Notes under the pieces: model-generated
The model's input: the letters and a program-made list of their open reading frames with translations, nothing else
Told to the model about the DNA's origin: nothing
Database searches by the model: none
Part shown: in pieces, positions 6,709-58,439 of the stretch
Layout of the letters: the number at the start of each line of letters is the position of its first letter
Position numbering within the stretch: the stretch's first letter is position 1
NCBI GenBank assembly: GCA_045587445.1
Contig: JAZNCH010000002.1
Location: forward strand, 35,506-99,505
Reading direction: 5' to 3'
Length of the DNA stretch: 64,000 nucleotides
Source: Eubacteriales bacterium
GTDB taxonomy: Bacteria; Bacillota; Clostridia; Oscillospirales; CAG-272
Program-made: the position numbers and the translations under genes

Positions 6709-9700
6709 TCAATGACTCAGCCTCTTTGATTTTGCCCTCCGTCTCCACACCAATATTATAAGAGACACAAGAATTATTAAAGATAAAACAGGGTACAAAT
6801 AACGTCTTAAGACAACTATTACTTCATCATCATTATCGGTAGAATCGTTAAATTCAAAAAGCTGTGCATCGGTATAATCACACGATAAACATTCAATTGA
6901 AGATATAAGCGCCTGCGGACTGTCATAATAGTTTTCTTCTGCCCTAAACAAAATTTGAATTGAATCAACCTTGTCAATCCCCGAAAATGCCGAAAAATCG
7001 CAGTATATTTCAGTCCAAACAGCTTTTTTTACTCTGCCTGTCATTTCATAAACATCATTCCCCGACATCAAAGACACAGTTATTTGAGAATAGTTAACGT
7101 TAGTAGGCAAGGATGCAATATTCAAGCCAAAATGAAGTATGGGAGATTTCGATAAATCAAACGGCTCGTCAAACATTTTGACTATTCCGCGCGACTCACC
7201 CTCAGGAACATCGCCCAAGGTTAATGAAATTAAATCTTTTTTATCGAAAAAAGTATATCCGGCAGTCAATCTTTCAGTGAAGCCGTAACGTTTCCAACCG
7301 TCGTTATTTGCAGAGAAGTTCGAAAAAATTATTTTTCCTTTTGTGTCGGGTTCAGTAAACATAATTATTCCCGAAGTTATATTTCTTCTGATAATATTCT
7401 TGTTTGAAAAACTTTCGATAACACTTTCCCACGTTGCAACACCGAGCATTTCCGAAACAAAACCGCTTGCAGTCATAGACAAACTCGTATCTACGTACTT
7501 CATAGCATCGTTGTAATTACAGCTACGGTCTGTAATATACGCCGACACCAACGTATTCAACGCTCTGTAGCAATTATAAACGTAGTCCGCCGTTATCTCT
7601 TCCTCACTCATATTGGCAAATATGCTTTCCTCAATTATTATATAATCTCTCGAAGAATTGTTATACAACAACGCCGGGGATTTAAGGTAGTTAACCATAA
7701 CTCCGATATTTTTAAATCCTACTCTGTCAGCAAAATACTCGTCTTTGAGTTCTGTATCTTTATAAGAAAAATAATCTTCTTTATAATTCGGATAAGGATT
7801 GTGCGCCAATCCCCACGCAATATCCCCCATTGAAGTTATATAACCGTCCAAGGAATCAAGAAAAGCCTTGTTGTCGTATCTTGTATATAAATCAAACGGC
7901 AATCCCTTATTCCAATTTGAGTCAACAAACGTATAAACCCTAACATAAGGAAAATACGACCGCGCCGCATTGTATATGGTGCGAAGTCCGTTAGCATACA
8001 AAGATACAAAATCCATCAGAATCTTGTTTCCCATATTGTAGTTATTTTGGGAATTTGCTACCTGATCACCAAAAACAAAACGGGTTATTTCTCCATTCAC
8101 GCAATATCTTGATGCAAAAAATTCGGTTATTGCACGAAGGTATGTCAATCCTTGTCTGTCCGCCGTATTATACGCACAATACTCCGAATCGAGCTCGGCA
8201 TCCTTGTGTATCAACACTCGGTTTAAAGCATCGTTCCCCGTATCCGAAACAACAAACACTACCGTAACGTCAATATCTTTTTCGGCATAATTTTTTATCA
8301 TCGTGCTTAAAGCACCAAAATATTCGGTATTATAGTAGAATAAGTTTCCGCCGCACTCAAATTTTCCGCCTCCGCTTTCTTCCGCTTCAAAAAACTTGCC
8401 TATATCCACCCAAACAGCCGTATCAGATGCTCCAACCTCTTGCATAAACGATATACTCGTACCTCTCACACCCTTACCGCTTCGTTTGGCGGGGGCAGTA
8501 ATCTCTTCTTTTACGTAGCTTTCCGGGTTAGTTATGCATTTCGAGGTTGAAATAACCGTAAAATCATCGTCAATTTTAAGTGCTGCTGTATATTTTTTGT
8601 ACAAAAACGCTCTCTCGTCCTTTGCTTTTCCGTAATCTATACGAAAAATAAAATCATCAAACGTTACATTTGTTTTCGCCAAAGGCTCCAAATTCAATAA
8701 ATCTTCTTCATTTATATTGTCGCAAAAATCATTTGCAAACAAATAAATTTCACCCACGCTGCTAATGTTATCCTTATTAACACTGCCTCGTATTATAATT
8801 TCTTCAGTCCCCGAGTTTAAAACGCAAGTATCAATTCCAATTTCATATTTATCATTTGACGAATATGCAGAACAAGGTGATATACCGTATATTCTAACAG
8901 TATCCATTTTTACACCCTCAAATATCAGGGCTATTTTTTGTATATTTCCTCCCTCTATCGGTAAATAAACCGAACAATAATTCTTGGCCGTATTTACCGT
9001 CTTATAACATTCCTCGACTAAGGCATTTTCGCCCCTCTTCACCAAAAGTCTAACGTTTTGACACAGTCCTTCAGTGTAAAAATCTACCTTTAGACTGTTT
9101 GCATCACCCATATTCTTGTAAACAAATCCCTCTGAATCAAGTCTTAATTCATCACCGACACCCTCAATTGAATGAACACCGTCTGAATATATGTTTGTTC
9201 CACCCATAACATCGTAATTCTCAGCCCCAACAGATGCACAGAAGTACGCACCAACCTTGTCCGACAATGTTATACTGTCTATATAATACTCAAAATCAGA
9301 CGATGGAACAACAGAATTCTCATAGCTGACGGCAATCTTTATCTTATTTATGCTCTTCCGGCTTTGCCACGTTGACACGTCAACAAATACACCATTCCAG
9401 CCCTCGCTTTCAATCTCGTCGGCAAAAACAAACATATCGGCATCCGAATACATCTCAATCCTTACACAATATTTCGCTTTTTCAACGTCAATACAATTCA
9501 TCGAAAGCATCATAACGGAATATAACGACAAATCAACGGGCTCTTGATACGTTTTTTCAATATAATATCTCTGTTCGCTTAAAGCATTATCAATTCTGAC
9601 TACCAGACTGCCGCCGTCAGTTAACGAACTAAAGGGAAAAGCCTTGATTTTTTCTGACAAAGTTACATTAACGTTAGCCATTTCGGAATCCCAACCTTCA

Positions 9701-9858
9701 TTTGTTTCGGAAAAATCGCTAAGAACTCCGCTTTCAACACTCTTTAATGAGAAAGGGCTTATATCGTGTATAACACGAGAATCCTCTGCTCCGTATATAG
9801 TAAGACACAGAGAAAATGCAACTACAACCACTATAAGCATAGCAAATATTTTTTTCAT
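6709..9858 (-). CDS. large secreted/surface protein, N-terminal signal peptide and C-terminal TM anchor; central region possibly glycoside-hydrolase-like (DUF5722-like)
   Basis: 1049 aa. The N-terminus MKKIFAMLIVVVVAFSLCLTIYGAED looks like a signal peptide. The C-terminus YPVLSLIILVSLIILVWRRRAKSKR looks like a TM helix with a basic tail. The central motif AWGLAHNPYP and surrounding sequence recall a TIM-barrel-like DUF; that assignment is from memory only. Confidence 0.6.
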   Translation of the reverse strand: MKKIFAMLIVVVVAFSLCLTIYGAEDSRVIHDISPFSLKSVESGVLSDFSETNEGWDSEMANVNVTLSEKIKAFPFSSLTDGGSLVVRIDNALSEQRYYIEKTYQEPVDLSLYSVMMLSMNCIDVEKAKYCVRIEMYSDADMFVFADEIESEGWNGVFVDVSTWQSRKSINKIKIAVSYENSVVPSSDFEYYIDSITLSDKVGAYFCASVGAENYDVMGGTNIYSDGVHSIEGVGDELRLDSEGFVYKNMGDANSLKVDFYTEGLCQNVRLLVKRGENALVEECYKTVNTAKNYCSVYLPIEGGNIQKIALIFEGVKMDTVRIYGISPCSAYSSNDKYEIGIDTCVLNSGTEEIIIRGSVNKDNISSVGEIYLFANDFCDNINEEDLLNLEPLAKTNVTFDDFIFRIDYGKAKDERAFLYKKYTAALKIDDDFTVISTSKCITNPESYVKEEITAPAKRSGKGVRGTSISFMQEVGASDTAVWVDIGKFFEAEESGGGKFECGGNLFYYNTEYFGALSTMIKNYAEKDIDVTVVFVVSDTGNDALNRVLIHKDAELDSEYCAYNTADRQGLTYLRAITEFFASRYCVNGEITRFVFGDQVANSQNNYNMGNKILMDFVSLYANGLRTIYNAARSYFPYVRVYTFVDSNWNKGLPFDLYTRYDNKAFLDSLDGYITSMGDIAWGLAHNPYPNYKEDYFSYKDTELKDEYFADRVGFKNIGVMVNYLKSPALLYNNSSRDYIIIEESIFANMSEEEITADYVYNCYRALNTLVSAYITDRSCNYNDAMKYVDTSLSMTASGFVSEMLGVATWESVIESFSNKNIIRRNITSGIIMFTEPDTKGKIIFSNFSANNDGWKRYGFTERLTAGYTFFDKKDLISLTLGDVPEGESRGIVKMFDEPFDLSKSPILHFGLNIASLPTNVNYSQITVSLMSGNDVYEMTGRVKKAVWTEIYCDFSAFSGIDKVDSIQILFRAEENYYDSPQALISSIECLSCDYTDAQLFEFNDSTDNDDEVIVVLRRYLYPVLSLIILVSLIILVWRRRAKSKRLSH

Positions 9859-14829: not shown

Positions 14830-15795
14830 TTACATTTTGCCGTTTGAACCGAGAACGTTAACAATCTTGTGAGCAACCATCTTGCGAACTTCTTCTCTAC
14901 CAACCTTAAGATATTCTCTGGGGTCGAATGCAGAAGGATTTTCAGCAAATACTCTGCGTACACCGGCTGTCATAGCAAGTCTGATGTCAGAGTCAATGTT
15001 GATCTTACATACTGCCATACCTGCAGCTTTTCTAAGCTGTTCTTCGGGAATACCGATAGCATCGGGCATCTTTCCGCCCTTTTCGTTGATTTCCTTAACT
15101 GCTTCCTGAGATACGGAAGAAGCACCGTGAAGAACAATCGGGAATCCGGGAAGTCTCTTTTCAACTTCTTCAAGAATGTCAAAACGAAGCGGAGGGGGAA
15201 CGAGTATACCCTTTTCGTTTCTTGTGCACTGCGCGGGTGTGAACTTGTATGCGCCGTGGCTTGTACCAATCGCAATTGCGAGTGAGTCAACACCTGTACG
15301 GCTAACAAATTCTTCAACTTCTTCCGGACGTGTATATGAAGAATCTTCTGCAGATACCTTAACTTCATCTTCAACGCCTGCAAGTCTGCCAAGCTCACCT
15401 TCAACAACGCAACCGTGTGCATGAGCGTATTCAACTACTTTCTTTGTAACCGCAATATTGTCCTCAAATGAGTGGTGAGAACCGTCAATCATAACAGATG
15501 TAAAGCCGCCGTCAATGCAAGCCTTACAAATTTCAAAATCTGCACCGTGGTCAAGGTGAAGAGCAATGTCAACGCCCGTGTCCTTGATAGCAGCATGAGC
15601 CAAAGCCATAAGATATTCGTGCTTAGCATACTTTCTTGCGCCTGCCGATACCTGAAGAACTACGGGAGAATTAAGCTCCTGCGCTGCTTCTGTAATAGCC
15701 TGAACAATTTCCATATTGTTGATGTTAAATGCACCGATAGCGTAACCGCCTTCGTATGCCTTTTTAAACATCTCCTTTGTTGTAACTAATGCCAT
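14830..15795 (-). CDS. fba: class II fructose-1,6-bisphosphate aldolase
   Basis: 321 aa with GAFNINNMEIVQAI, HLDHG and the class II aldolase metal-ligand pattern. Confidence 0.9.
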   Translation of the reverse strand: MALVTTKEMFKKAYEGGYAIGAFNINNMEIVQAITEAAQELNSPVVLQVSAGARKYAKHEYLMALAHAAIKDTGVDIALHLDHGADFEICKACIDGGFTSVMIDGSHHSFEDNIAVTKKVVEYAHAHGCVVEGELGRLAGVEDEVKVSAEDSSYTRPEEVEEFVSRTGVDSLAIAIGTSHGAYKFTPAQCTRNEKGILVPPPLRFDILEEVEKRLPGFPIVLHGASSVSQEAVKEINEKGGKMPDAIGIPEEQLRKAAGMAVCKINIDSDIRLAMTAGVRRVFAENPSAFDPREYLKVGREEVRKMVAHKIVNVLGSNGKM

Positions 15796-29722: not shown

Positions 29723-30799
29723 ATGAAAGAACTCAAGAAAAACTGTAAATACGCCCTTGTTGTTCCCACAAGTATGGGCGTTAGAATAACTCCCGAAAAC
29801 AGTCAGCCCGTTGCCGCAAGCGATATGTTCCGTATGCAAGCGACAAGTGCTGAAACAAACGTTGCAAGTATTTCCGCATACCTCGGTCTTCCAGTTAAAG
29901 TTCTTACAAGGTTTGTAAAGGGCAGTCCTATTGCCGCATTTATCAAGCAGAACCTCCGTTCCAGAGGTATGGATTTTGAAGGTAAAGACATTGAACAGGG
30001 CGGTCCTTGGGGGTATCGCCACCAATTTAATATCGCTGATAGCGGCTACGGACTCAGAGGTCCCCGCGTTGCCAACGACAGAGCAGGAGAAGTAGGAAGA
30101 ACTCTTTGCCTTGAAGACTTCGACCTCGAAAGAATCTTCGGCAAAGAAGGCGTACAGATACTCCACCTTTCCGGACTTATCGGTGCACTTTCTCCCGAAA
30201 CAAGCAAGTTCTGTCTTGAACTTGCAAGAGCTGCAAAGAAATACGGCACACTTATTTCCTTTGACCTTAACCACAGAGCTTCTTTCTGGGAAGGCAGAGA
30301 ACAGGAACTTCACAATATCTTTACAGAAATTGCAAGTGTATCCGATATTCTTGTCGGTAACGAAGAAGACTTCCAGCTTTGCCTTGGCATTGAAGGTCCC
30401 GAAGCGGGCGGTAAGGATATTTCTTCCAAAATTGAAAACTTTAAGGAAATGACCGCAAGAGCTAAGAAAGCGTTTCCCGAAACCTCGGTATTCGCAACGA
30501 CTCTCCGTCAGGTTATTAATGTAAATTTACACCTCTGGGGTGCTATTACCTTGGTTGGCGACGAGTGGTACATTGAAGAGCCTCGTGAAATCCGCGTTCT
30601 CGACAAAATCGGCGGCGGCGACGGCTTCGTAGGCGGTTTGCTCTACTCCATTCTTAAGGGCTGGGAGCCTGAAAAATGGGTTAAATTCGGTTGGGCTACA
30701 GGTGCTATGGCTACAACGTTCCTCACCGACTATGCACAGCCTTCCGACGAGGATCAAGTTTGGGCTATCTACGGCGGAAACGCAAGAGTTAAGAGATAA
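29723..30799 (+). CDS. PfkB-family sugar kinase (2-dehydro-3-deoxygluconokinase-like)
   Basis: 358 aa. The C-terminal motif DKIGGGDGFVGGLLY is the PfkB signature 2. Its length and N-terminus resemble KDG-kinase-type members. Confidence 0.7.
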   Translation: MKELKKNCKYALVVPTSMGVRITPENSQPVAASDMFRMQATSAETNVASISAYLGLPVKVLTRFVKGSPIAAFIKQNLRSRGMDFEGKDIEQGGPWGYRHQFNIADSGYGLRGPRVANDRAGEVGRTLCLEDFDLERIFGKEGVQILHLSGLIGALSPETSKFCLELARAAKKYGTLISFDLNHRASFWEGREQELHNIFTEIASVSDILVGNEEDFQLCLGIEGPEAGGKDISSKIENFKEMTARAKKAFPETSVFATTLRQVINVNLHLWGAITLVGDEWYIEEPREIRVLDKIGGGDGFVGGLLYSILKGWEPEKWVKFGWATGAMATTFLTDYAQPSDEDQVWAIYGGNARVKR

Positions 30800-30817: not shown

Positions 30818-30877
30818 AAAAGGGAAAACTTTTTGAAAAAAGTTTTCCCTTTTTAAATCCCTTTCAAAAACTTTTAA
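30818..30877 (-). repeat. dispersed repeat E3 (variable-stem hairpin with T5-6/A5-6 apex + CAAAAACTT tail)
   Basis: The hairpin aaagggaaaacttttt-ga-aaaaagttttcccttt is followed by ccctttcaaaaactttt. It doubles as the terminator of the sugar kinase gene. Confidence 0.75.
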
Positions 30878-30995
30878 TAATGTTTTATGTAAATATATCG
30901 AGTTAAAATAATGCATTTTTATTCTTTACTTTTATGTTCGCGTGTGTTATACTATAGGGTGGAAAATAATTTTTCAAAGGCAAGGGGTAAACAGA

Positions 30996-31319
30996 ATGTC
31001 AAATAATTTATGCGAATCGAAAGAAATACGTTTCATTTGCGAGGAAATAAAGAAACTTTTTGACGTTGAATCCATTATCGTATTCGGTGTAAAACGCAGC
31101 GAAAACGATAATTCGGTTACTGACCTCGATATTTGCGTCGTTGCAAACACCGACGATAAAAACGCTTGGATAAAAAAAGCGTACATTGAAATAGACAGCG
31201 AAATACCTTTTGACCTTTTTCTTTATACTCCGAAAGAATGGGAGGCGCTGAACCAACAAAGCGAAAGCTTTGCTTCCCGTATCACTCGAAAGGGGTGCGT
31301 TTATTTTGGCAAGGCGTAA
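30996..31319 (+). CDS. minimal nucleotidyltransferase (MNT) domain protein, putative antitoxin
   Basis: ATG 30996 gives MSNNLCESKE.... The polymerase-beta-type NTase motif is FGVKRSENDNSVTDLDICVV. It overlaps the following HEPN gene. Confidence 0.75.
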   Translation: MSNNLCESKEIRFICEEIKKLFDVESIIVFGVKRSENDNSVTDLDICVVANTDDKNAWIKKAYIEIDSEIPFDLFLYTPKEWEALNQQSESFASRITRKGCVYFGKA

Positions 31320-31722
31320 ATCCCGAGACAGCAAGATTTATACAAATTGGATGATATACGCCGAAAATGACCTTCGCGCCGCCACTTCTCTCCGCAGAAA
31401 CAAGCACACGCTTCTTCTTTCGGCTTTTCATTCCCATCAAGCAATCGAAAAAACGTTAAAGGCTTATATGTTGGCGCAAAAAGGATTTGCCCCTGACGGT
31501 CATAATATTATATTTTTGTGCAAAACCGCAGCAAAAATTAACGAGGGGTTTTACGACTGGCTCGACGAGTGTATCGCTCTAAACAACTACTATATTCAAA
31601 CACGCTACCCGCCCGACTTCCCCCTCGAAATAGACAAGGCAACGGCAAAAAAGCTATCGGTAATGGCGCAAAACTTATACAGATTTGCGTTTAATGAATT
31701 GGTAAAAGTACAATTTGAATAA
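31306..31722 (+). CDS. HEPN domain protein, putative toxin partner of the MNT
   Basis: The classical HEPN pattern is present (W..AENDLRAA..., HQAIEKTLKAY, HNIIFL, IQTRYP). TTG 31306 overlaps the MNT stop and is preferred because the conserved Trp lies upstream of the first ATG. The start is uncertain. Confidence 0.7.
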   Translation: MARRKSRDSKIYTNWMIYAENDLRAATSLRRNKHTLLLSAFHSHQAIEKTLKAYMLAQKGFAPDGHNIIFLCKTAAKINEGFYDWLDECIALNNYYIQTRYPPDFPLEIDKATAKKLSVMAQNLYRFAFNELVKVQFE

Positions 31723-41710: not shown

Positions 41711-43774
41711 ATGGGAAAAGTTCAGACACAAGACATCAGAAACATTGTATTACTCGGTCATGGCGGTTGCGGTAAAACGTCAATTGCTGAGGCTGCATTA
41801 TATTTAACAAAAGCAACCGACAGACTCGGAAAGCCCTCCGACGGCAATACCGTATGCGACTATGACCCCGAAGAAATAAAGAGAGGATTTTCACTTTCAG
41901 CAGCTATGGCTCCTGTAATGTGGAACGATACAAAGATTAACTTTATAGACACACCCGGATACCTTGATTTTGAAGGTGAAGTTGTTCAGGCAATAAGAGT
42001 TGCTGACAGTGCTCTTATTTCTGTAGATGCAAAAGCAGGTGTTGAAGTAGGTACAAAGCTTGCTTGGGACAACGCTACCGAAGCGGGAATTCCGAAAGCG
42101 TTCTTTATAAACAAATTTGACGACAAAGAAGCTAATTTTGACAACGTATTCAATCAGTTAAAAGAAACGTTTGGAAACTTGGTATGTCCTCTTATCATAC
42201 CTGTTGAAACAAATTCTAACCGCTTTGTTCATTTAGCTACTATGAAAGAGCTTATTTATGCTCCCGACGGTACGTTTACCGAGAGCGATATATCTGCAGA
42301 AGACGGAGCTGTTGCTGAAAAATATCACGAAGCTCTTATGGAATCCGTAGCCGAAACAAGCGACGAGCTTATGGAAAAATACTTTGCAGGCGAAGAAATT
42401 TCAAAGGCAGAAGTACTTGAAGCTATTAAAAACGGTCTTCTTGCGGGAACAATCGCCCCCATTATTTGCGGAAGCGCAGTTAAGCTTTGGGGTATAGCAT
42501 CCTTGCTTAACGTATCTCTTGCATCTTTCCCCTCATTTACAAACCACGAATACGAAAGAGTTATAGAAAACGGCGAAGAATCGCAAGTTGAAATTGATGT
42601 TAACGGCACAACAAGCCTCTTCGTATTTAAGACTGTTTCCGACCCATTCGTTGGTAAGATGTCATTCTTCAAGGTTATGAACGGTGAATTGTGCCGCGAT
42701 ATGACTCTTAAGAATCTCCGCACCGAAGGAACGGAAAAATTTGCTCACTTCTACGTTATGAAGGGTAAGAAGCAGACCGAAGTTGACACACTCTGCTGCG
42801 GTGATATTGGTATGATTCCCAAGCTTTCGGGAACAGAAACAAACGATACGCTTTCTGTAGGCAACGTTCTTCCTTACGCTCCCACAGTATATCCCGAATC
42901 CGTATTTACTATGGCATTCTCGCCCAAGGCTAAGGGTGATGAAGATAAGATTTCACAGGGTATTAACAGACTCCTCGAAGAAGATAAAACCCTTAAATAT
43001 GAAAACAACACCGAAGTTAAGCAGATACTCATCTCGGGTCTCGGCGATATTCACCTTGACGTAGTTATATCAAAGCTTAAGTCCAGATACAACACCGACG
43101 TTGAAATGTCCAAGCCCAAGATTGCTTACAGAGAAACAATCAAGAAGAAAGTTCAGGTTGAAGGTAAGCATAAAAAGCAGTCAGGCGGTAGCGGTCAGTA
43201 CGGACACGTTAAGATTACTTTTGCTCCCGGCGAGGATCTCGGTCTTACGTTTACACAGAGCGTTGTAGGCGGTAACGTACCGAAAAACTACTATCCCGCA
43301 GTCGAAAAGGGTCTTCTTGAAGCTATGCAAAAGGGTGTACTTGCAGGATTCCCCGTAGTTAACCTTGCGGCCGACCTGTTCGACGGTTCATATCACCCTG
43401 TTGACTCCAACGAAATTTCCTTTAAACTTGCAGCTATTCTTGCATATAAAGCAGGTCTCGCACAGGCAGGTCCCGTTATTCTCGAGCCAGTAGGTCTTCT
43501 TAAAGTTAGAATTCCCACCGATATGATGGGCGACGTTATCGGCGATATAAACAAGAGAAGAGGCAGAATCCTCGGTATGAACGCCGATGAATCCAAGAAG
43601 GGCTATTCGATAGTTGAAGCAGAAGTTCCGAAATCAGAAATGCTTGATTACGCGATTATTATGCGTGCTATCTCGGGAGGTCTCGGAAGATATACCTTTG
43701 AATTTGTTCGTTACGAAGAAGTTCCCGGTATGGTTTCTCAGAAGATTATCGAAGCGGCTCAAAAAGCTGAATAA
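41711..43774 (+). CDS. elongation factor G-like translational GTPase (paralogue type)
   Basis: 687 aa with G1 GHGGCGKTS, DTPG and NKFD. The EF-G domain II-V architecture is present, but the gene is not in the str operon context. Confidence 0.8.
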   Translation: MGKVQTQDIRNIVLLGHGGCGKTSIAEAALYLTKATDRLGKPSDGNTVCDYDPEEIKRGFSLSAAMAPVMWNDTKINFIDTPGYLDFEGEVVQAIRVADSALISVDAKAGVEVGTKLAWDNATEAGIPKAFFINKFDDKEANFDNVFNQLKETFGNLVCPLIIPVETNSNRFVHLATMKELIYAPDGTFTESDISAEDGAVAEKYHEALMESVAETSDELMEKYFAGEEISKAEVLEAIKNGLLAGTIAPIICGSAVKLWGIASLLNVSLASFPSFTNHEYERVIENGEESQVEIDVNGTTSLFVFKTVSDPFVGKMSFFKVMNGELCRDMTLKNLRTEGTEKFAHFYVMKGKKQTEVDTLCCGDIGMIPKLSGTETNDTLSVGNVLPYAPTVYPESVFTMAFSPKAKGDEDKISQGINRLLEEDKTLKYENNTEVKQILISGLGDIHLDVVISKLKSRYNTDVEMSKPKIAYRETIKKKVQVEGKHKKQSGGSGQYGHVKITFAPGEDLGLTFTQSVVGGNVPKNYYPAVEKGLLEAMQKGVLAGFPVVNLAADLFDGSYHPVDSNEISFKLAAILAYKAGLAQAGPVILEPVGLLKVRIPTDMMGDVIGDINKRRGRILGMNADESKKGYSIVEAEVPKSEMLDYAIIMRAISGGLGRYTFEFVRYEEVPGMVSQKIIEAAQKAE

Positions 43775-43784
43775 TATTATATTT

Positions 43785-43826
43785 AAACCTAAAAGGAAAC
43801 TCCGAAAAGAGTTTCCTTTTAGGTTT
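43785..43826 (+). terminator. strong hairpin/terminator after the EF-G-like gene
   Basis: An 18-bp perfect stem, aaacctaaaaggaaactc/gagtttccttttaggttt, is followed by gttgttt. Confidence 0.75.
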
Positions 43827-43863
43827 GTTGTTTATAATTTTCAGGGCATTCCCTGAAACCCAC

Positions 43864-43909
43864 AAGGGGCGTTTTTTCAAAAACGCCCCTTGACCCCCAA
43901 AAACTTTAA
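43864..43909 (-). repeat. dispersed repeat E3 copy
   Basis: The hairpin aaggggcgttttt-tc-aaaaacgcccctt is followed by gacccccaaaaacttta. Confidence 0.75.
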
Positions 43910-43930
43910 TAAAGGAAATTAGTGTAGGAA

Positions 43931-43950
43931 TATTGTTTGTACAAACAATA
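43931..43950. repeat. perfect 20-bp palindrome TATTGTTTGTACAAACAATA
   Basis: Read directly from the sequence. A 14-bp relative, GGTTTGTACAAACC, lies at 44056-44069. Confidence 0.9.
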
Positions 43951-43959
43951 ATTAGTCGC

Positions 43960-43996
43960 ACAGACCAAGAGAGGCAAGTTCTTTGCCAAGCTTTCT
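43960..43996 (+). repeat. dispersed repeat E2 (ACAGACCAAGAGAGGCAAGTTCTTTGCCAAGCTTTCT)
   Basis: The identical 37-mer occurs at 53778-53814. An inverted copy lies at 48670-48710. Confidence 0.9.
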
Positions 43997-44056
43997 TTAA
44001 ATAATACCCCTTCCACCATCTTCGATGGTCCCCCTCCCCCAATGGGGAGGCTTGGG

Positions 44057-44118
44057 GTTTGTACAAACCAGAGATTCAAGGTTTCTTTGCTTACTTTCTT
44101 TCCTTAAAAGAAAGTAAG
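44057..44118 (+). repeat. dispersed repeat E1 copy
   Basis: Reads gtttgtacaaaccagagattcaaggtttctttgcttactttctttccttaaaagaaagtaag. Confidence 0.85.
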
Positions 44119-44195
44119 TGTTCATACTATATTCATATATATTATGTAAAATACACTTAAGACAGAATGCTAAAAAAGAAAAGAGTAAATAAAAA

Positions 44196-45569
44196 ATGAG
44201 TACAATATCCGCAATATCCACCGCTTTTGGTAAGGGCGGTATAGCTGTAATAAGGCTATCGGGCGAGGGTGCTATTGATATTTTAAATAAGGTATTTAAA
44301 CCGGTGGGGAATAAGTCTATAGAAGATTTTGCCCCCAATACACTCGTATATGGTAATATCTATAAAGAAGATAAGCTTATTGACAGAGGAATGGCCGTTT
44401 ATTTTAAAGCACCTAAGTCATATACAGGCGAAGATTCAGCAGAAATACACTGTCATGGCGGTATATTGCTGTCCCAAATGGTGCTTGAAGCAACGTTTTT
44501 AGCCGGTGCAACACCCGCAGGTCCCGGAGAATTCACGCAGAGGGCATTTTTGTCGGGTAAAATGGGACTTTCTCAAGCTGAGGCGGTAATTGACCTTATC
44601 GATGCACAAAGTGAATCTAAGGCCGCTTTGGCGGCTTCTCAGGCTGACGGCCGTTTGTCAAAAAGAGTAAACGAGTTATATTCCGAGCTTATGACGATAG
44701 TAAGCAGTATTTATGCTTATATCGACTATCCCGACGAGGATTTGACCGATATATCGATAGACGATATGAAATCGGGACTCGACGGCATAAGAAAAAGCCT
44801 TGAAGACCTCAAAAAGACCTACAAGACGGGTAGAGCTGTATGTGAGGGCCTGAATACCGTTATTGCGGGTAAGCCAAATACGGGTAAATCTTCACTTTTG
44901 AATATGCTTCTCGGCGAAGACAGAGCAATAGTTACTCCCATTGCGGGAACAACGCGTGATACCGTTGAAGAGACTGTATCTGCAGGTCAAGTTTTGCTCA
45001 GACTTTGCGATACGGCGGGTATACATACCGCCACCGACGAGGTTGAAGAGATAGGCGTAAAGAGAGCTATTGCAAAGGTGAAGAACGCAGAGCTTGTTTT
45101 GGCTGTTTTTGACGGCTCTGCTGAGCTTGACGGCGAAGATATGGAAGTTATAAAACAACTGAAAACCTTAGAAGATAAGACTATTATCGTAGTGCTTAAT
45201 AAAAACGACGTTGGAACAAAGCTCGACAAAAAACAGTTTGAGACTATAACCCCATACGTTGTGGATATTTCCGCAAAAGAAAATAACGGAAAAACAGAGC
45301 TGGTTGAACTTATTGAGCAGATATATATCGACGGTGAGATAGAATATTCGTCTGCATGTGTTGTAACGAACGCCCGACAATTTGCATCTATTGTAAATTC
45401 AGTAAACCATATTAATAACGCACTTTCCGCCTTAAACGAAGGCTTTACACAGGATATAGCGGGAATGGAGCTTGAACTTACACTGTCAGAACTCGGAAAC
45501 CTCGACGGAAGAAAGGTTACCGAAGACGTGGTACACAACATATTCGGCAGATTTTGCGTAGGAAAATAA
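44196..45569 (+). CDS. mnmE: tRNA modification GTPase MnmE/TrmE
   Basis: 457 aa. The N-terminus is ISTAFGKGGIAVIRLSG, the G domain carries GKPNTGKSSLLN, DTAG and NKND, and the protein ends in CVGK. Confidence 0.95.
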   Translation: MSTISAISTAFGKGGIAVIRLSGEGAIDILNKVFKPVGNKSIEDFAPNTLVYGNIYKEDKLIDRGMAVYFKAPKSYTGEDSAEIHCHGGILLSQMVLEATFLAGATPAGPGEFTQRAFLSGKMGLSQAEAVIDLIDAQSESKAALAASQADGRLSKRVNELYSELMTIVSSIYAYIDYPDEDLTDISIDDMKSGLDGIRKSLEDLKKTYKTGRAVCEGLNTVIAGKPNTGKSSLLNMLLGEDRAIVTPIAGTTRDTVEETVSAGQVLLRLCDTAGIHTATDEVEEIGVKRAIAKVKNAELVLAVFDGSAELDGEDMEVIKQLKTLEDKTIIVVLNKNDVGTKLDKKQFETITPYVVDISAKENNGKTELVELIEQIYIDGEIEYSSACVVTNARQFASIVNSVNHINNALSALNEGFTQDIAGMELELTLSELGNLDGRKVTEDVVHNIFGRFCVGK

Positions 45570-45580
45570 ATACCAAAACA

Positions 45581-45605
45581 AAAAATCCTCTGACGAGGAT
45601 TTTTT
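45581..45605. terminator. bidirectional terminator between mnmE and ogg
   Basis: Reads aaaaaTCCTCtgacGAGGAttttt. Confidence 0.8.
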
Positions 45606-46443
45606 ATTTATTATATCTTTCATAATAGAACAAATACTGCTGAATCATACCGGCATAGGCACCGAGGTTAGTTAAATCAAGTCCGTCGGGATAATACTTT
45701 TCGAGAACTCTTTTTACCCAAACGTCAACAGGGAAAGCATCAGTTTTATTAAAACCGAAAAGCAGGGCACACGAAGCTACTTTAAGTCCTACGCCTTTTA
45801 TTTGCATAAGATATTCCAAGGCTTCGTCTGTTGTCATTTTGTCAACAGCTAAAAGGTTAATTTTCCCAGTTACGACCTTTTCTGCAGCATCGTAAATATA
45901 CTTGGCTCTGAAGCCGGTTTTCAGCTCAAATATCCTGTCAACTCCGGCTCTGTAAAGAGCCTCGGCAGTGGGAAAAGCATAATGTGTTTCGTCGATTTTT
46001 TCGCCGAATTCTCGGCTCATATTTTCGATTATTTTCTTAATTCTCGGGATATTGTTGTTTTGTGAAATAATAAACGAACAAAGGGCTTCCCAACCGTCTT
46101 GACGTAATATACGGATACCACTTCCGTATTCAATTGCTTTCTTTATAGTATCGTCATCGTTAAGCCTTGTTATAATGTCGCTGTCAACCGCCGAGTAGTC
46201 CTCGTCAAGTGCAAGGTATCGGCAAAACCTTTCATCAAACTCCGACTTTGTTATACCGTATATTTTAACCGAATCACTGTTCTCTTGCTCAAAGTAAAGC
46301 ACTTTGCCGTAAGCGATGCCCTCGATTCCGTTACCGACAGAGTCAAAACGAAAGCATTGACCGCAGTCAAATATCTTGCTTATGGAAAAACGGTCGAGAC
46401 CATTTATTTCTATGTATTTTTCTTTTTCTGTTACGCTAAACAT
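45604..46443 (-). CDS. ogg: HhH-GPD DNA glycosylase, clostridial 8-oxoguanine glycosylase (Ogg)-like
   Basis: 279 aa with N-terminal FDCGQCFRF and an HhH-GPD region (IKGVGLKVASCALLFG...DAFPVDVWV). Confidence 0.7.
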   Translation of the reverse strand: MFSVTEKEKYIEINGLDRFSISKIFDCGQCFRFDSVGNGIEGIAYGKVLYFEQENSDSVKIYGITKSEFDERFCRYLALDEDYSAVDSDIITRLNDDDTIKKAIEYGSGIRILRQDGWEALCSFIISQNNNIPRIKKIIENMSREFGEKIDETHYAFPTAEALYRAGVDRIFELKTGFRAKYIYDAAEKVVTGKINLLAVDKMTTDEALEYLMQIKGVGLKVASCALLFGFNKTDAFPVDVWVKRVLEKYYPDGLDLTNLGAYAGMIQQYLFYYERYNK

Positions 46444-46529
46444 TTACAATTCCTTTTTATAAAAACTATTGTGTATTCCTTGGTTAAATGGTATAATGAT
46501 ACAAACGATATTAAAGGGGAATTTTTCTT

Positions 46530-47210
46530 ATGGAAAAAATATATACAATACCCGTCAACGAGGCTTTTGATGCCTGTATGGAAGATAAAACAAAGGGCTG
46601 TCCTTTCTGCGAAATGTTCAGAAAGGTTCAAGAAAACGAGCTTGACCTTATTCTCGGCGCATCTATGATGGAGCCCGACGTTCGTATCAAGACAAACGAA
46701 ATGGGCTTCTGCGATAAGCACCTTTCTATGATGATGAAACGAAAGAACAGACTCGGTCTTGCTCTTATGCTCGAAAGCCACTTGGCTCACGTAGCAAAAG
46801 AATCAAAAGGCTTCGGAGCTATTAAAAAGGTCGAAAAGATTAACGACAGCTGTTACATCTGCTCCCGTATCGACTACCATATCGAAAGAATGTTCGAGAC
46901 TGCCGCTTGGCTTTACGATACCGACAGAGCCTTTGAAGAAAAGATTAAGAATCAATCATATTTCTGCTTGAACCACTACCATAAGTTTTTGACTGCCGGT
47001 AAAAATGAACTTAACAGAAAGAAATATGCCGACTTTGAACGTCTTGTTTCAAAGGTTAATGAGACATACCTCACAGAGCTAAGTGCAGACGTAAGCTGGT
47101 TCTGTAAAAAGTTTGACTATAGGTACGATGAAGAGCCTTGGGGTAACGCGAAGAACGCCCCCGAAAGAGCTATTAAATTCTTGACCGGTAGCTTGACAGA
47201 CGTTGAATAA
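46530..47210 (+). CDS. conserved hypothetical Cys/His-rich protein (two CxxC...CxxH modules)
   Basis: 226 aa. CPFC(x31)CDKH is repeated as CYIC(x39)CLNH. Both modules look like zinc-binding motifs. Confidence 0.6.
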   Translation: MEKIYTIPVNEAFDACMEDKTKGCPFCEMFRKVQENELDLILGASMMEPDVRIKTNEMGFCDKHLSMMMKRKNRLGLALMLESHLAHVAKESKGFGAIKKVEKINDSCYICSRIDYHIERMFETAAWLYDTDRAFEEKIKNQSYFCLNHYHKFLTAGKNELNRKKYADFERLVSKVNETYLTELSADVSWFCKKFDYRYDEEPWGNAKNAPERAIKFLTGSLTDVE

Positions 47211-47214
47211 CCCC

Positions 47215-47270
47215 CCTACTTTCTTTGAGGAAGAAAGTAGGCAAAGACCCTTGAATAATTGGTCTGTGCC
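47215..47270 (-). repeat. dispersed repeat E1 copy
   Basis: Reads cctactttctttgaggaagaaagtaggcaaagacccttgaataattggtctgtgcc. Confidence 0.85.
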
Positions 47271-47337
47271 ACTTTTTATCATTTGTGCGAACAATTTATC
47301 TTAATATTAAAGCGGAGGGGAATCCCCTACGCTTTTT

Positions 47338-47378
47338 AAAGTTTTTGAGGGTTTGGGAACTTTTTTCAAAAAGTTCCC
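47338..47378 (+). repeat. dispersed repeat E3 copy (also the likely terminator of the Cys-rich gene)
   Basis: Reads aaagtttttgagggtttGGGAACtttttt-c-aaaaaGTTCCC, followed by ttattttttt. Confidence 0.75.
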
Positions 47379-47386
47379 TTATTTTT

Positions 47387-48565
47387 TTACACTTCCGGCT
47401 CTATTTTTATTGTCTGGAGTGATTCCATTGCTTCTTTTTCGAGGGCTTCTATATCAATCTTCGATTCTTGTTCAAGCACACGGAACATTTCGGGGCGAGT
47501 CTTGGGGTGTTTAGGAGTAAACACTGTACAACAATCTTCGTATGGAAGTATTGAAGTCTCAAACGTATTAATCTTTCTTGAAATAGTAATAATCTCTTCT
47601 TTATCCATACCGATACAAGGTCTAAAAACGGGCATATTTACAACAGAGTCGGTAACGTTCAGCGCATCTAAAGTCTGACTTGCAACCTGACCTAAGCTTT
47701 CACCTGTAATAAGTGCACGGCACTTATTTCTGTTTGCAACCTTTTCTGCAAGACGCATCATAAAACGACGGAGCAACAGAGTAAAATATTCCTCGTCGCA
47801 AAGTCGTCTCAATTCCTCTTGGATATGAGTAAGAGAAATAACGTGCACGTAGATATTACCCGAATATACGGAAACAAGTCTTGCAAGCTGCAATACCTTT
47901 TCTTTTGCTCTCTCGCTTGTATAGGGGAAGCTTTCAAAGTGAACTGCATCAAGATTAAGTCCCCTCTTCGACATCATATAACCTGCAACAGGGCTGTCAA
48001 TACCACCCGAAAGCAAAAGCATAGCCTTACCGTTTGAGCCTACGGGCATACCGCCGGCACCCTTAAAGGCACCTGCGTGAACATAAGCGTTGGTTTCACG
48101 AAGCTCAATTCTAACGGTTATTTCAGGGTTATCCATACTAACTTTAAGTCTCGGCATAACCTCAAGCACAGCACCGCCTACCTCTGCCGCAATCTGCGGA
48201 GAGGTCAAGGGAAATTTCTTGTCAGAGCGTCTTGCTTCAGCCTTAAAGCTCTTTTTACCTTCAAGATATTGGGGCAGATATTCTGCCGCCTTTTTCTTTA
48301 TATCATCAATATTCTTTTCGCAAACAACGGCACGGCTAACCGAAACAAAGCCAAATACTTTAAGAGCTGCCTCAAATGCACCGTCAATATCGGCAAAATC
48401 GTCTAACGGCTCAACGTATGTTGTTGACTGTGATGCGGAAACCTTAAAATTACCGTAAGGCTTGATACATTCCTTAAGTCTCTTTGCCAAAAGGTCCTCA
48501 AACCACTTTCTGTTAAGTCCCTTTAGTACGAGTTCGCCCTGTTTACACAAAAGTATTTCTTTCAT
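47387..48565 (-). CDS. thiI: tRNA 4-thiouridine(8) synthase ThiI (no rhodanese domain)
   Basis: 392 aa. A THUMP region is followed by the PP-loop SGGIDSPVAGYMM. Confidence 0.9.
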   Translation of the reverse strand: MKEILLCKQGELVLKGLNRKWFEDLLAKRLKECIKPYGNFKVSASQSTTYVEPLDDFADIDGAFEAALKVFGFVSVSRAVVCEKNIDDIKKKAAEYLPQYLEGKKSFKAEARRSDKKFPLTSPQIAAEVGGAVLEVMPRLKVSMDNPEITVRIELRETNAYVHAGAFKGAGGMPVGSNGKAMLLLSGGIDSPVAGYMMSKRGLNLDAVHFESFPYTSERAKEKVLQLARLVSVYSGNIYVHVISLTHIQEELRRLCDEEYFTLLLRRFMMRLAEKVANRNKCRALITGESLGQVASQTLDALNVTDSVVNMPVFRPCIGMDKEEIITISRKINTFETSILPYEDCCTVFTPKHPKTRPEMFRVLEQESKIDIEALEKEAMESLQTIKIEPEV

Positions 48566-48669: not shown

Positions 48670-48710
48670 CGCTTTCTTTCGTAGAAAGCTTGGCAAAGAA
48701 CTTGCCTCTC
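48670..48710 (-). repeat. dispersed repeat E2 copy (inverted)
   Basis: cgctttctttcgtagaaagcttggcaaagaacttgcctctc is the reverse complement of 53786-53826 with one mismatch. Confidence 0.9.
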
Positions 48711-48732: not shown

Positions 48733-48791
48733 GTAGTACAGACCCATTATTAAAAGGTTCTTTGCTTACTTTCTTCCTTAAAGAAAGTAGG
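48733..48791 (+). repeat. dispersed repeat E1 copy
   Basis: Reads gtagtacagacccattattaaaaggttctttgcttactttcttccttaaagaaagtagg. Confidence 0.85.
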
Positions 48792-48822
48792 GCGACCGTT
48801 TTGGCCGCCCTTAAGTTCTTGT

Positions 48823-49514: not shown

Positions 49515-50657
49515 TTATTCGTCTTTCTTTTTCGTGTCGTCTTCTTGTACGTCAGACACTTCAATCATACCCGCGAGTCCATTTTTGGGAGCTTCTGACT
49601 TTTTCTTCTTTTCGGGTTCGGGAGCAATATAGTCCTCTTCATCAATTCTGTGAAGTGAACGTACCTTTTTCTTTTCGCCCGTACCGCTTGAAGATTTCTT
49701 TGTTTTTGACTTACCGTTCATTTCTCTTTCAGCATTCTTATAATCCTCTTCGGTAAACTTAGGCAAGGGCATAACCTTTGCCAAGATAATCTGCTGAATA
49801 GTACCGAAAATATTATTGAACATCCAATAAATACCGATAACCGCAGGAACGATAAACGTGATATATACGCTCATCAAGGGCATCATCCAGTCCATCATTT
49901 TTGTGGAACAGCCGGCAGCGGGGTCGTTATTTTGTACGCCTTCGTTGGGGTTGTACATAAACTTCTTGTTTATCTTCATAGACAAAAAGCTTATCACAAA
50001 CGTCAAAACGGGAACCAACCATAAAATAGTAATTGTATTAATAGCGGGAGTTTCTGCAAGATTAAGCCCGAAAATATTGAAGTTCGGGAGCTCTTCTACA
50101 GATTTAACGTACTCGCTTATTTGCGAGCTGAATTCGTTGAAATTATTTTTAATAATATCAACGAGCTGAATTTGGGACATAGACTTAATAGCCTTTTCAA
50201 CAGTTTGTCCTTCAGTCAAAGTTTTTGAAACAATTTCTTTAAGAGCATCGCTCTCGGTTATTGCCTTAACAACGTCTTTTGGAATACGGCAAAGGAATTC
50301 CAATGGTCTGATAATTACCTGATAAAGACCGAGCAATATAGGAAGCTGAATAAGAAGAGGCAAACAACCACCCATTGGGTTGTAGTTCTCTCTGGTATAG
50401 AGATCCATTATTTCGTTCTGCATCTTTTGCTGAGTCGGCTGATCGTTTCTTCCCGCATACTTTTTGCGGATAGCCATTTCTTTTGGTCTCAGCGTAGCCT
50501 GCTTAATGGAATTTTTTTGCTGCTTTATGCTCAAAGGCAGCATTGCAATTTTTACTACAATTGCAAACAAAATAAGACCTACGAGATAATTTTTTCCGCC
50601 GATTATATAACAAAATTCGACGACGTAGGCAAACAGTTTAAGAATTGCGTCTATCAA
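49515..50657 (-). CDS. yidC: membrane protein insertase YidC/SpoIIIJ
   Basis: TTG start after GGAG. The motif GGCLPLLIQLPILLGLY is present, followed by a long charged C-terminal tail. Confidence 0.9.
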   Translation of the reverse strand: MIDAILKLFAYVVEFCYIIGGKNYLVGLILFAIVVKIAMLPLSIKQQKNSIKQATLRPKEMAIRKKYAGRNDQPTQQKMQNEIMDLYTRENYNPMGGCLPLLIQLPILLGLYQVIIRPLEFLCRIPKDVVKAITESDALKEIVSKTLTEGQTVEKAIKSMSQIQLVDIIKNNFNEFSSQISEYVKSVEELPNFNIFGLNLAETPAINTITILWLVPVLTFVISFLSMKINKKFMYNPNEGVQNNDPAAGCSTKMMDWMMPLMSVYITFIVPAVIGIYWMFNNIFGTIQQIILAKVMPLPKFTEEDYKNAEREMNGKSKTKKSSSGTGEKKKVRSLHRIDEEDYIAPEPEKKKKSEAPKNGLAGMIEVSDVQEDDTKKKDE

Positions 50658-56128: not shown

Positions 56129-56377
56129 ATGTATATACATCTTGGTAACAAAAAGAATATTCGAGAAAAAGATATTGTCGGAATTTTTGATATGGATAAC
56201 GCGACGATGGCAAAGGAAACGCGTAAATTTTTGAACAAGGCACAAAAAGACGGTAAGCTTATTACGACGGTTGATGAGATACCGAAGTCGATTATTCTTA
56301 CAAAGGACAACGTATATATGTCTCAATTAGCTCCTAAGTCGCTTTACGGAAGACTGACGGAGAAAGATATTAGATAA
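56129..56377 (+). CDS. remB: DUF370 protein (RemB/YaaB-like)
   Basis: 82 aa. It occupies the conserved recF-[DUF370]-gyrB position and contains IVGIFDMD...SIILT. Confidence 0.75.
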   Translation: MYIHLGNKKNIREKDIVGIFDMDNATMAKETRKFLNKAQKDGKLITTVDEIPKSIILTKDNVYMSQLAPKSLYGRLTEKDIR

Positions 56378-56423
56378 ATTGCAAAAACTTTTAAAAATTA
56401 GACAAATCAACCCATAATCAATC

Positions 56424-58439
<2,016 letters not shown>

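Follow-up and report, generated by a model that had tools for sequence, protein, structure and literature searches.

The stretch of DNA analysed here (the window, 64,000 nucleotides from a member of the Eubacteriales) is a chromosomal oriC region of about 39% G+C that carries dnaA, dnaN, recF, a remA-like gene, gyrB, mnmE, thiI and the gene for EF-G; its nearest retrievable relatives are uncultured gut Clostridia/Eubacteriales assemblies. Within it lie four copies of a short repeat, E3, which we number 1–4 by window coordinate. Each copy has a 5′ segment (S1, the putative third strand discussed below) followed by a hairpin with a 5′ arm (S2) and a 3′ arm (S3). Copy 1 (30818–30877, minus strand) lies between a pfkB-family gene (29723–30799, plus) and the next plus-strand gene, and on the minus strand reads AAAG (30874–30871), T5 (30870–30866), S1 GAAAGGGATT (30865–30856), a turn (approximately 30855–30854), S2 AAAAGGGAAAAC (30853–30842), a T6-C-A5 apex (30841–30830) and S3 GTTTTCCCTTTT (30829–30818). 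Copy 2 (43863–43909, minus) is downstream of the EF-G gene (41711–43774, plus), past its terminator (43784–43827), and comprises AAAG (43907–43904), T5 (43903–43899), S1 GGGGG(T) (43898–43893) and the hairpin CAAGGGGCG-TTTTTGAAAAAA-CGCCCCTTG (43892–43863), again on the minus strand. Copy 3 (47338–47378, plus) separates the convergent genes for a DUF6062 protein (46530–47210, plus) and thiI (47387–48565, minus); its parts are AAAG (47338–47341), T5 (47342–47346), S1 GAGGG (47347–47351), a TTT turn (47352–47354), S2 GGGAAC (47355–47360), T6-C-A5 (47361–47372) and S3 GTTCCC (47373–47378). Copy 4 (56423–56473, plus) is found between the remA-like gene (56129–56377, plus) and gyrB (56520–58439, plus), with (C)AAG (56423–56426), T6 (56427–56432), S1 GAAGATT (56433–56439), S2 ATTAAGAAAC (56440–56449), T6-AC-A6 (56450–56463) and S3 GTTTCTTAAT (56464–56473). 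All four are intergenic, in agreement with the gene-boundary location given in a first-pass annotation of the window: copies 1 and 2 are antisense between plus-strand genes, copy 3 is in a convergent spacer and copy 4 is in the sense direction from remA to gyrB.

The same annotation had placed the four copies correctly, with copies 2 and 4 now extended to 43863 and 56423–56473, and its stems are right and mostly 1–4 bp longer than it gave (AAAAGGGAAAAC/GTTTTCCCTTTT, CAAGGGGCG/CGCCCCTTG, GGGAAC/GTTCCC and ATTAAGAAAC/GTTTCTTAAT). The layout that it described as shared is present in every copy, except that copy 1 has GAAA instead of GRRG and copy 4 has T6. A blind search for hairpins that have a T4–8/N0–3/A4–8 apex and at least four more perfect pairs yielded, across the window, these four only (30818–30853, 43863–43892, 47355–47378 and 56440–56473), and in 4/4 of them AAGTTTTT(T)G lies 5–11 nt from the stem, always on its 5′ side. 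The motif AAGTTTTTGRRG (at most one mismatch) occurs 11 times in the window as compared with 3.3 expected, and 0/100 shuffles reached 11. Folded as single-stranded DNA, the four hairpins have energies of −9 to −15 kcal/mol (z = −2.3 to −4.8). With a covariance model trained on 90 family members, including the four window copies, copies 1–4 scored 55, 55.2, 58.4 and 48.5 bits; this 48–58 bit range compares with 22.6 bits for the next-best full-length match in the window, at the ribosome-binding site of an acetate-kinase-like gene (ackA). Possible extra copies at 50219, 59361 and 18527 were dropped, as they have no hairpin.

The wider family was collected from one genome per species with the pattern AAGTTTTTGRRG-N4-16-CTTTTT-N1-3-AAAAAG, which demands no outer stem. 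This gave at least 120 loci, with 128 matches among the matches listed, and 87 of these 128 have at least five consecutive Watson–Crick pairs beyond the required C..G; in a control with the 3′ partner displaced by 40 nt, 0/128 had even four. Across the 128, 42 different outer arms occur. The covariance model finds 177 matches at E ≤ 1e-4 across 672 kb of host loci, or, once the copy by which each locus was collected is set aside, about one more per 9 kb. Elements are about 40–55 nt long, and the alignment of 90 members has the consensus AAAGTTTTTG-RRG...C-T6-C-A5-G with an invariant core of AAAG-T5-G ... C-T6-C-A5-G. In this alignment 98.4% of stem cells are paired and 13/16 pairs show changes on both sides, figures that are partly circular because the members were picked for their stems, so that the unbiased figure is 87/128; the covariation score of the same alignment is 0.462, compared with 0.141 in shuffles, and was equalled in 0/500 of them. 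As the stems vary and yet remain paired among matches that were not selected for stems, selection acts on a nucleic-acid fold rather than on a peptide, as had been proposed from the four window copies, and both this selection and the non-coding nature of E3 are well supported.

It follows from the same data that E3 copies are almost certainly not short coding segments, nor chance look-alikes among ordinary terminators. Two copies do translate into similar peptide strings, which were correctly noted before, and an open reading frame (ORF; 43746..44066, minus, 106 aa) spans copy 2. However, the paired substitutions in the stems alter the peptide, copy 4 holds the stop codon reported earlier, and hundreds of members in unrelated genomes have the same architecture. 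The ORF itself runs through copy 2, an adjoining hairpin module (described below) and intergenic repeats and overlaps the 3′ end of the EF-G gene, so it is almost certainly spurious, as had been suspected; E3 generates spurious ORFs with FFKK-like peptides. Stem covariation together with the family-wide model matches refutes the coding or chance explanation.

E3 had been described as a 5′ tag plus a hairpin. The hairpin holds, and the tag is not constant: it co-varies with the stem in mirror order. When the three bases 3′ of AAGTTTTTG were tabulated against the inner end of the 5′ arm, a sharp association was seen, with GAAG accompanied by ..AAAC or GAAC, GAGG by GAAC or GGAC, GGAG by AACC (17/18), GGGA by ACCC and GAAA by AAAC. 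The relation is that of a mirror, in that S1 read outward from its own T-run matches S2 read backward from the T-run of S2, as in copy 1 (TTTTT-GAAAGGGATT-TA-AAAAGGGAAAAC-TTTTTT), copy 2 (TTTTT-GGGGG-T-CAAGGGGCG-TTTTT), copy 3 (TTTTT-GAGGG-TTT-GGGAAC-TTTTTT) and copy 4 (TTTTTT-GAAGATT / ATTAAGAAAC-TTTTTT). Mutual information between S1 and S2 over the 90 members forms a clean anti-diagonal (0.51, 0.30, 0.30, 0.68 and 0.84 bit), the pairings being A-A, G-G, G-C beside the T-run and T-A. Against shuffled partners the mirror alignment has z of about 17, and direct or reverse-complement relations have z of 5–8. The same mirror is present in 33 copies found by the model outside the scan pattern (mutual information up to 0.88 bit, equalled in 0/2000 permutations), and because these copies did not match that pattern, the purine positions of their S1 (RRG after T5-G) were not constrained by it.

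True S1–S2 partners have on average 5.78 triplet-compatible positions beyond the T-run, compared with 3.84 for randomly swapped partners, 4.51 (± 0.08) for partners of like stem G+C and 3.94 (± 0.12) for partners of like host G+C, and the mirror excess remains within each S1 class. Since it survives both the G+C-matched and the class-matched swaps, host composition and coarse subfamily structure are not its cause. Pairing of the 5′ motif with the 3′ half of the hairpin (8/9 bases) was ruled out as the source of the covariation because it uses invariant bases only. That S1 co-varies with the stem in mirror order argues for a selected fold with three segments, not two. As for the strand, internal mismatches read on the S1 strand are G.T in 37 cases and A.C in 14 (p = 0.002), and this excess of G.T therefore places the selected fold on the S1 strand.

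We know of no templated copying process that makes mirror repeats, and a triple helix is, to our knowledge, the physical reason for them; it is on this ground that the S1–S2 mirror is read as a triplex. From these comparisons we consider it probable that E3 elements are dispersed, intergenic, non-coding DNA repeats whose selected fold on one strand has three segments and is of the intrastrand-triplex type. In such a fold S2 and S3 would form the hairpin (purine-rich S2, an apex of C-T5/6-N-A5/6-G and pyrimidine-rich S3), and S1 (T5-G-R-R-R..., the mirror of S2) would lie in the major groove as third strand, with A (or T) at an S2 A, G at an S2 G, G at an S2 C and T5 opposite the S2 T-run. The outer part would consist of G.G-C, A.A-T and T.A-T triplets with the third strand antiparallel to the purine arm, and the apex part of T.A-T triplets in which the T5 of S1 runs parallel to the A5 tract (A5 plus G on the 3′ arm). 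Of the four classes defined for intrastrand triplex repeats of bacteria (earlier BoxC and PIT elements, TMECO; Holder et al. 2015, PMC4666352), these parts would correspond to class I and, approximately, class IV (Hoogsteen, pyrimidine, purine). Class I has reverse-Hoogsteen, purine and pyrimidine blocks on one strand, an antiparallel third strand and G.G-C and A(or T).A-T triplets (PMC4666352). Its block order (S1, purine-rich 5′ arm, pyrimidine-rich 3′ arm) was found in the four window copies and 86 others, with S1 antiparallel, or mirror, to the purine block and following the R-motif code (G with G-C, A or T with A-T). As the third strand is 5′-most in either class, the two parts are compatible and a single uninterrupted S1 would suffice for them; E3 would then be an alternate-strand triplex. 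Folding would most likely take place when the E3 strand is single-stranded or is extruded from supercoiled DNA, with the A/T-rich centre favouring opening. Formation of the triple helix is what we infer from the covariation, and any effect on replication or recombination would likewise be a deduction.

Several points weigh against a triplex. A strict scan of the window for class I motifs (at least five uninterrupted triplets beside the turn) passes copy 1 only, with nine triplets; copy 1 has 11 triplet-compatible positions beyond the T-run, and copies 2–4 have 5–7 only if one base pair is skipped, plus a T5 block over the pyrimidine run of the 5′ arm. The published ITxF criterion for class I is 6–15 contiguous triplets (at most one mismatch if more than 7) with loops of 1–6 nt (PMC4666352). 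In addition to copy 1 the strict scan returned three short matches, as compared with 0–2 in shuffles, and on this basis we rejected the view that the window is rich in classical class I motifs. Across the family, one S2 column, or base pair, is regularly skipped just past the T-run, near the strand switch; the mirror often ends 1–2 nt from the centre, which is too short for a turn unless outer pairs open; and a G opposite a C:G pair requires a parallel G.G-C triplet, a weaker one. A minority of 'GCGG'-type copies, common in one relative of the window (L359, below), have C opposite G:C, which lies outside the triplet code. The triplex is deduced solely from covariation, and kinship among copies cannot be fully removed from the covariation statistics. 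The invariant AAAG, T5 and C-T6-C-A5-G core also exceeds what a triplex needs, which suggests either common descent through horizontal spread or a protein that recognises the core. E3 shows no orientation bias relative to GC skew (67/119) or flanking genes, and a replication-linked role is therefore unsupported; the 3-of-4 pattern within the window was too small a sample, and a replication-linked orientation was rejected on the family figure. Finally, the E. coli analogue folds as a triplex as an isolated single strand by circular dichroism and nuclear magnetic resonance, but its authors observed none in duplex DNA or in vivo (PMC4666352).

The location of the elements and the folding strand also bear on an explanation at the RNA level, in which E3 would be a hairpin of 3′ untranslated regions that stabilises or terminates transcripts, possibly with an ENE-like major-groove triple of the U.A-U type in which the 5′ U5 contacts the U5/A5 apex. 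The elements do sit at gene boundaries, the polarity of U5, U5–6 and A5 is right for U.A-U triples, G.U-type wobbles, in excess on the S1 strand, would be as natural in RNA as in single-stranded DNA, and copy 3 passes a terminator scan, its hairpin being followed by TTATTTTTTT. We nevertheless regard this as quite improbable. T-rich tails (six or more T within the first nine bases past the stem) are present in 2/120 elements on the S1 strand and in 0/120 on the other. T-runs had been reported behind two of the window copies, and this is borne out for copy 3, whereas the TTTT of copy 1 belongs to its own stem; copy 3 is the only window copy to pass the terminator scan, and the E3 family as a whole is not one of intrinsic terminators. 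Copies 1 and 2 each run antisense to the gene on either side, tandem gene pairs hold both orientations (15 same-sense vs 23 antisense), and EF-G has its own strong terminator ahead of copy 2. The A-A and G-G covariation has no RNA rationale, as purine-motif triplexes do not form in RNA (PMC4666352). The window has no Rfam 15 match at gathering thresholds, with only chance-level scores far below threshold around copy 2. E3 is thus read as a DNA-level element, both because purine-motif triplexes do not form in RNA and because copies 1 and 2 are antisense to their neighbours.

E3 hosts, among the matches listed, are mostly Clostridia metagenome-assembled genomes (MAGs) from animal and human guts. 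Others are Acidocella facilis ATCC 35904, Halodesulfovibrio spirochaetisodalis, Maridesulfovibrio and Desulfovibrionaceae, with further MAGs labelled as Verrucomicrobia, Omnitrophota, Acidobacteriota and Thermodesulfobacteriota; the G+C of host loci ranges from 0.39 to 0.66. Members are also found on viral contigs (a first viral scan with a loose pattern gave mostly chance matches and was discarded). By a crude ORF-based assignment, 87 elements comprise 39 convergent, 23 antisense-tandem, 15 sense-tandem and 10 divergent cases, so that E3 favours gene 3′ ends and has no fixed orientation. Turnover was examined in relatives whose ThiI is 90–93% identical: locus L359 has six copies in 21 kb, all on one strand, L364 has three in 11.7 kb, and L363 and L365 have none in about 20 kb each. 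Copy 3 is missing from the orthologous spacer in all four, where plain terminators stand instead, and the remA–gyrB spacer of L365 is 94 nt, compared with 143 nt in the window, and has no T5/A5 hairpin. Copy 3 and an element of locus L123 are identical over 41 nt with different flanks. A ThiI-based metagenome scan, whose relatives were at most 66% identical and mostly of high G+C, found no E3 in 839 kb and serves as a negative control only. The most probable behaviour of E3 is like that of the BoxC/PIT/TMECO repeats, with gain and loss at harmless intergenic sites, mostly gene 3′ ends, in rearrangement-prone mosaics of small structured repeats.

Much of this would also be expected if E3 were a REP/BIME/MITE-like repeat whose hairpin and 5′ tag are recognised by a dedicated enzyme (a HUH transposase of the RAYT type or some other structure-specific protein). 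No triplex would then form, and the S1 mirror would stem from such recognition or from descent within subfamilies. The core does not change between phyla or between genomes that differ widely in G+C; the spread is patchy (none in the 839 kb of thiI-related loci, and 0–6 copies among close relatives); an identical version of copy 3 exists in a second genome, where its flanks differ; elements are found at gene 3′ ends and in convergent spacers (39/87); members occur on viral contigs; and inverted pairs flank genes or operons in three loci. In one of these (L098, viral contig IMGVR_UViG_3300006131_000123, 12144–13780) a single gene lies, cassette-like, between two inverted units of E3 plus the second module described below, and in the other two (L162 and L188) inverted E3 copies with similar 5′ flanks lie on either side of aro operons. 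We judge this explanation unlikely, however, since covariation in mirror order, with each position obeying the triplet code, is the outcome of no known templated or protein-reading process. The copies inspected have no adjacent or intervening transposase, only the aro operon and other housekeeping genes, nor do they have a GTAG/CGTC tag, an obvious terminal inverted repeat or a target duplication. The hallmarks of MITEs (terminal inverted repeats and target duplication) are not evident in the listed flanks, and the orthologous spacers are too diverged to give insertion boundaries. A mobile repeat would be compatible with the triplex if the enzyme recognised the folded form. It is possible, if rather doubtful, that E3 is a horizontally spreading DNA element propagated via its single-stranded alternate-strand triplex (T.A-T over the apex, purine-motif triplets down the stem). 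Were this true, the three-way covariation, seen over hundreds of copies from several phyla, would be the first comparative (evolutionary) proof of a selected intrastrand DNA triplex in cells, and triplex-dependent spread would point to a structure-specific mobilising enzyme.

The surroundings of the window copies are themselves variable. The block mnmE/OGG (279 aa)/DUF6062/thiI (44196–48565) is inverted relative to L359 (L360–L362 have the same sequence) and L363, where the order is EF-G, thiI, DUF6062, OGG, mnmE, jag; in L364 thiI is oriented to jag as in L359 and L363, opposite to the window, and mnmE is missing. A perfect 28-nt inverted repeat (AGAAAGCTTGGCAAAGAACTTGCCTCTC, 43969–43996 and 48683–48710) brackets the inverted block exactly, and copy 2 sits 60 nt outside its left arm. 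An inversion beside copy 2 fits the reported link of such repeats with local instability, the recombining repeat not being E3 itself. Gene order around oriC differs widely among the relatives with 90–93% identical ThiI (L359 and L363–L365 compared with window 37000–58500); L365 has recF-remA-gyrB-pfkB-gyrA-...-tyrS-thiI, and L364 has neither mnmE nor dnaA near rnpA. Either the oriC region is unusually rearranged or some of the assemblies are chimeric.

Copies 2 and 3 both lie within mosaics of other small hairpin modules. An upstream module, TTGGTCTGTGCNAC...TTTGTNCNAACAAT (43932–43968, minus), is beside copy 2, and its partner beside copy 3 (47259–47295, plus) is 81% complementary to it; because this module is common to both, copies 2 and 3 belong to a composite repeat of about 110–140 nt. 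A perfect 16-bp palindrome (TTGTTTGTACAAACAA, 43933–43948) lies inside the upstream module (TTGGTCTGTGCNAC...ACAAT) of copies 2 and 3, and a third, weaker copy is found at 48733–48746, at the opposite end of the inversion. Another module, a G-run followed by TTT and a G-rich hairpin (GGGG-TTT-GGGGC-AAC-GCCCC) and here called the second module, comes after copy 4 (56475–56496, plus; GGGG-TTT-CGGGGC-AAC-GCCCCG) and copy 2 (43842–43861, minus; GGG-TTT-CAGGG-AATG-CCCTG), and one of the same kind stands behind 17/120 family members elsewhere. Its order is again third strand, purine, pyrimidine, with only 3–4 possible triplets. Other recurrent tails after E3 copies are CCGCCGGAGGC and TCGCCGAAGGC. 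A G/C-rich subtype forms tail-to-tail doublets (AAAGTTTTTGGGT-GCCGCC-T6-C-A5-GGCGGC ... GAAGC-T5-G-A6-GCTTC-ACCAAAAAC) in viral contigs L337, L352, L332, L339, L342, L355, L356 and L321 and also in L165, L192 and L195; in Acidocella they precede a long G+C-rich hairpin that resembles a terminator.

Two further features of the window may be of related kinds. A second repeat family, GGTTTCTTTG-CTTA-CTTTCTT-loop-AAGAAAGTAAG, occurs in the window at 44080–44122 (plus), 48754–48792 (plus) and 47214–47252 and in L359 at 9690–9740 and 14845–14895, and its 5′ TTTCTTT mirrors the pyrimidine 5′ arm, which is the class IV (Hoogsteen, pyrimidine, purine) pyrimidine-motif layout. At 44007–44057 (plus), CCCCTTCC is followed by the hairpin ACCATCTTCGATGGT and by CCCCCTCCCCC-AAT-GGGGAGG-CTT-GGGG; this C-rich/G-rich hairpin flanked by C and G runs recalls BoxC-type triplex motifs. 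Next to copy 1 (30942–31722, plus) are a HEPN-domain gene (31270–31722) and, ahead of it and overlapping it, an ORF of 125 aa that matches nothing in Pfam; the two may be a toxin–antitoxin pair of the HEPN/MNT type.

E3 bears on the question of DNA triple helices in living cells, as regards both their formation and their importance. The fold of the E. coli BoxC/TMECO repeats is known from isolated strands only, and E3 adds comparative evidence: as its stems differ from copy to copy and the three segments change together, a covariation argument of the kind used for RNA can be applied to a putative three-stranded DNA fold, and the copies amount to many natural 'compensatory mutants' usable in biophysical tests. 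In genomes and MAGs of gut Clostridia, E3 also marks intergenic mosaics that are variable and prone to rearrangement.

We compared E3 with the known systems that it resembles. Full-text literature searches for the motif strings returned primers only, those on REP-like repeats of Clostridia or Desulfovibrio gave no relevant result, and a BLAST search of a consensus copy against annotated plasmids and phages had no match, which is uninformative for so short and low-complexity a query. Intrinsic terminators also have a stable hairpin downstream of genes, and in copy 3 a T-run follows the stem; in E3, however, the T- and A-runs are at the apex inside the hairpin, 118/120 elements have no T-rich tail and the conserved 5′ segment is not a terminator feature. 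H-DNA likewise has purine-rich blocks that are mirror-symmetric around a short spacer, but there a mirror repeat suffices and the pyrimidine partner comes from the opposite strand, whereas E3 has its own pyrimidine arm on the same strand, so that a single strand could fold alone.

The REP/BIME/REPIN repeats, which are associated with RAYT transposases, are extragenic palindromes of 20–40 nt with a conserved 5′ tag and compensating stem variation that occur in mosaics with other small repeats and prefer gene 3′ ends and convergent spacers. Like a REP, E3 is an extragenic imperfect palindrome present in many copies (host loci hold an extra copy roughly every 9 kb). Unlike a REP, it has AAAGTTTTTG rather than GTAG or CGTC as its tag, consists mostly of single units rather than inverted doublets, and has a 5′ tag that changes together with the stem, a feature for which REPs offer no described parallel. 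In the neighbourhoods of the E3 copies inspected, no RAYT gene was present.

The closest likeness is to the BoxC/PIT/TMECO repeats (Hoyne et al. 2000; Holder et al. 2015, PMC4666352). A search for a known family had been suggested for E3; no Rfam family matches it, and its layout is nonetheless of a kind already described, that of the intrastrand triplex repeats (PMC4666352). Both groups are short, dispersed and intergenic, with consecutive third-strand, purine and pyrimidine blocks on one strand and a third strand, putative in E3, that mirrors the purine block with G.G-C and A/T.A-T triplets; in both, copy number differs strongly between close relatives, the repeats are tied to variable loci, and the flanking genes have no common function. 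A search of that paper and of supplementary material did not turn up the E3 sequence family (PMC4666352). TMECO is G/C-rich (CCCTCNCCC-N3-6-GGGNGAGGG-N3-GGGNGAGGG), belongs to class II (Y-R-RH) and is reported from proteobacteria, whereas E3 has the class I order (RH-R-Y), no sequence similarity to TMECO and no match to its consensus, and is found in Clostridia and at least five other phyla. E3 further differs in its invariant A/T core, at which the purine tract switches to the other arm, so that its third strand would have to cross strands (T.A-T parallel, then R.R-Y antiparallel). This combination of parallel T.A-T and antiparallel R.R-Y is said to be the rule given by Beal and Dervan in 1992 for designed alternate-strand triplexes. 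Taken with the fold predicted from covariation, E3 appears to be a new and structurally distinct sequence family among the dispersed DNA repeats of the intrastrand-triplex type.

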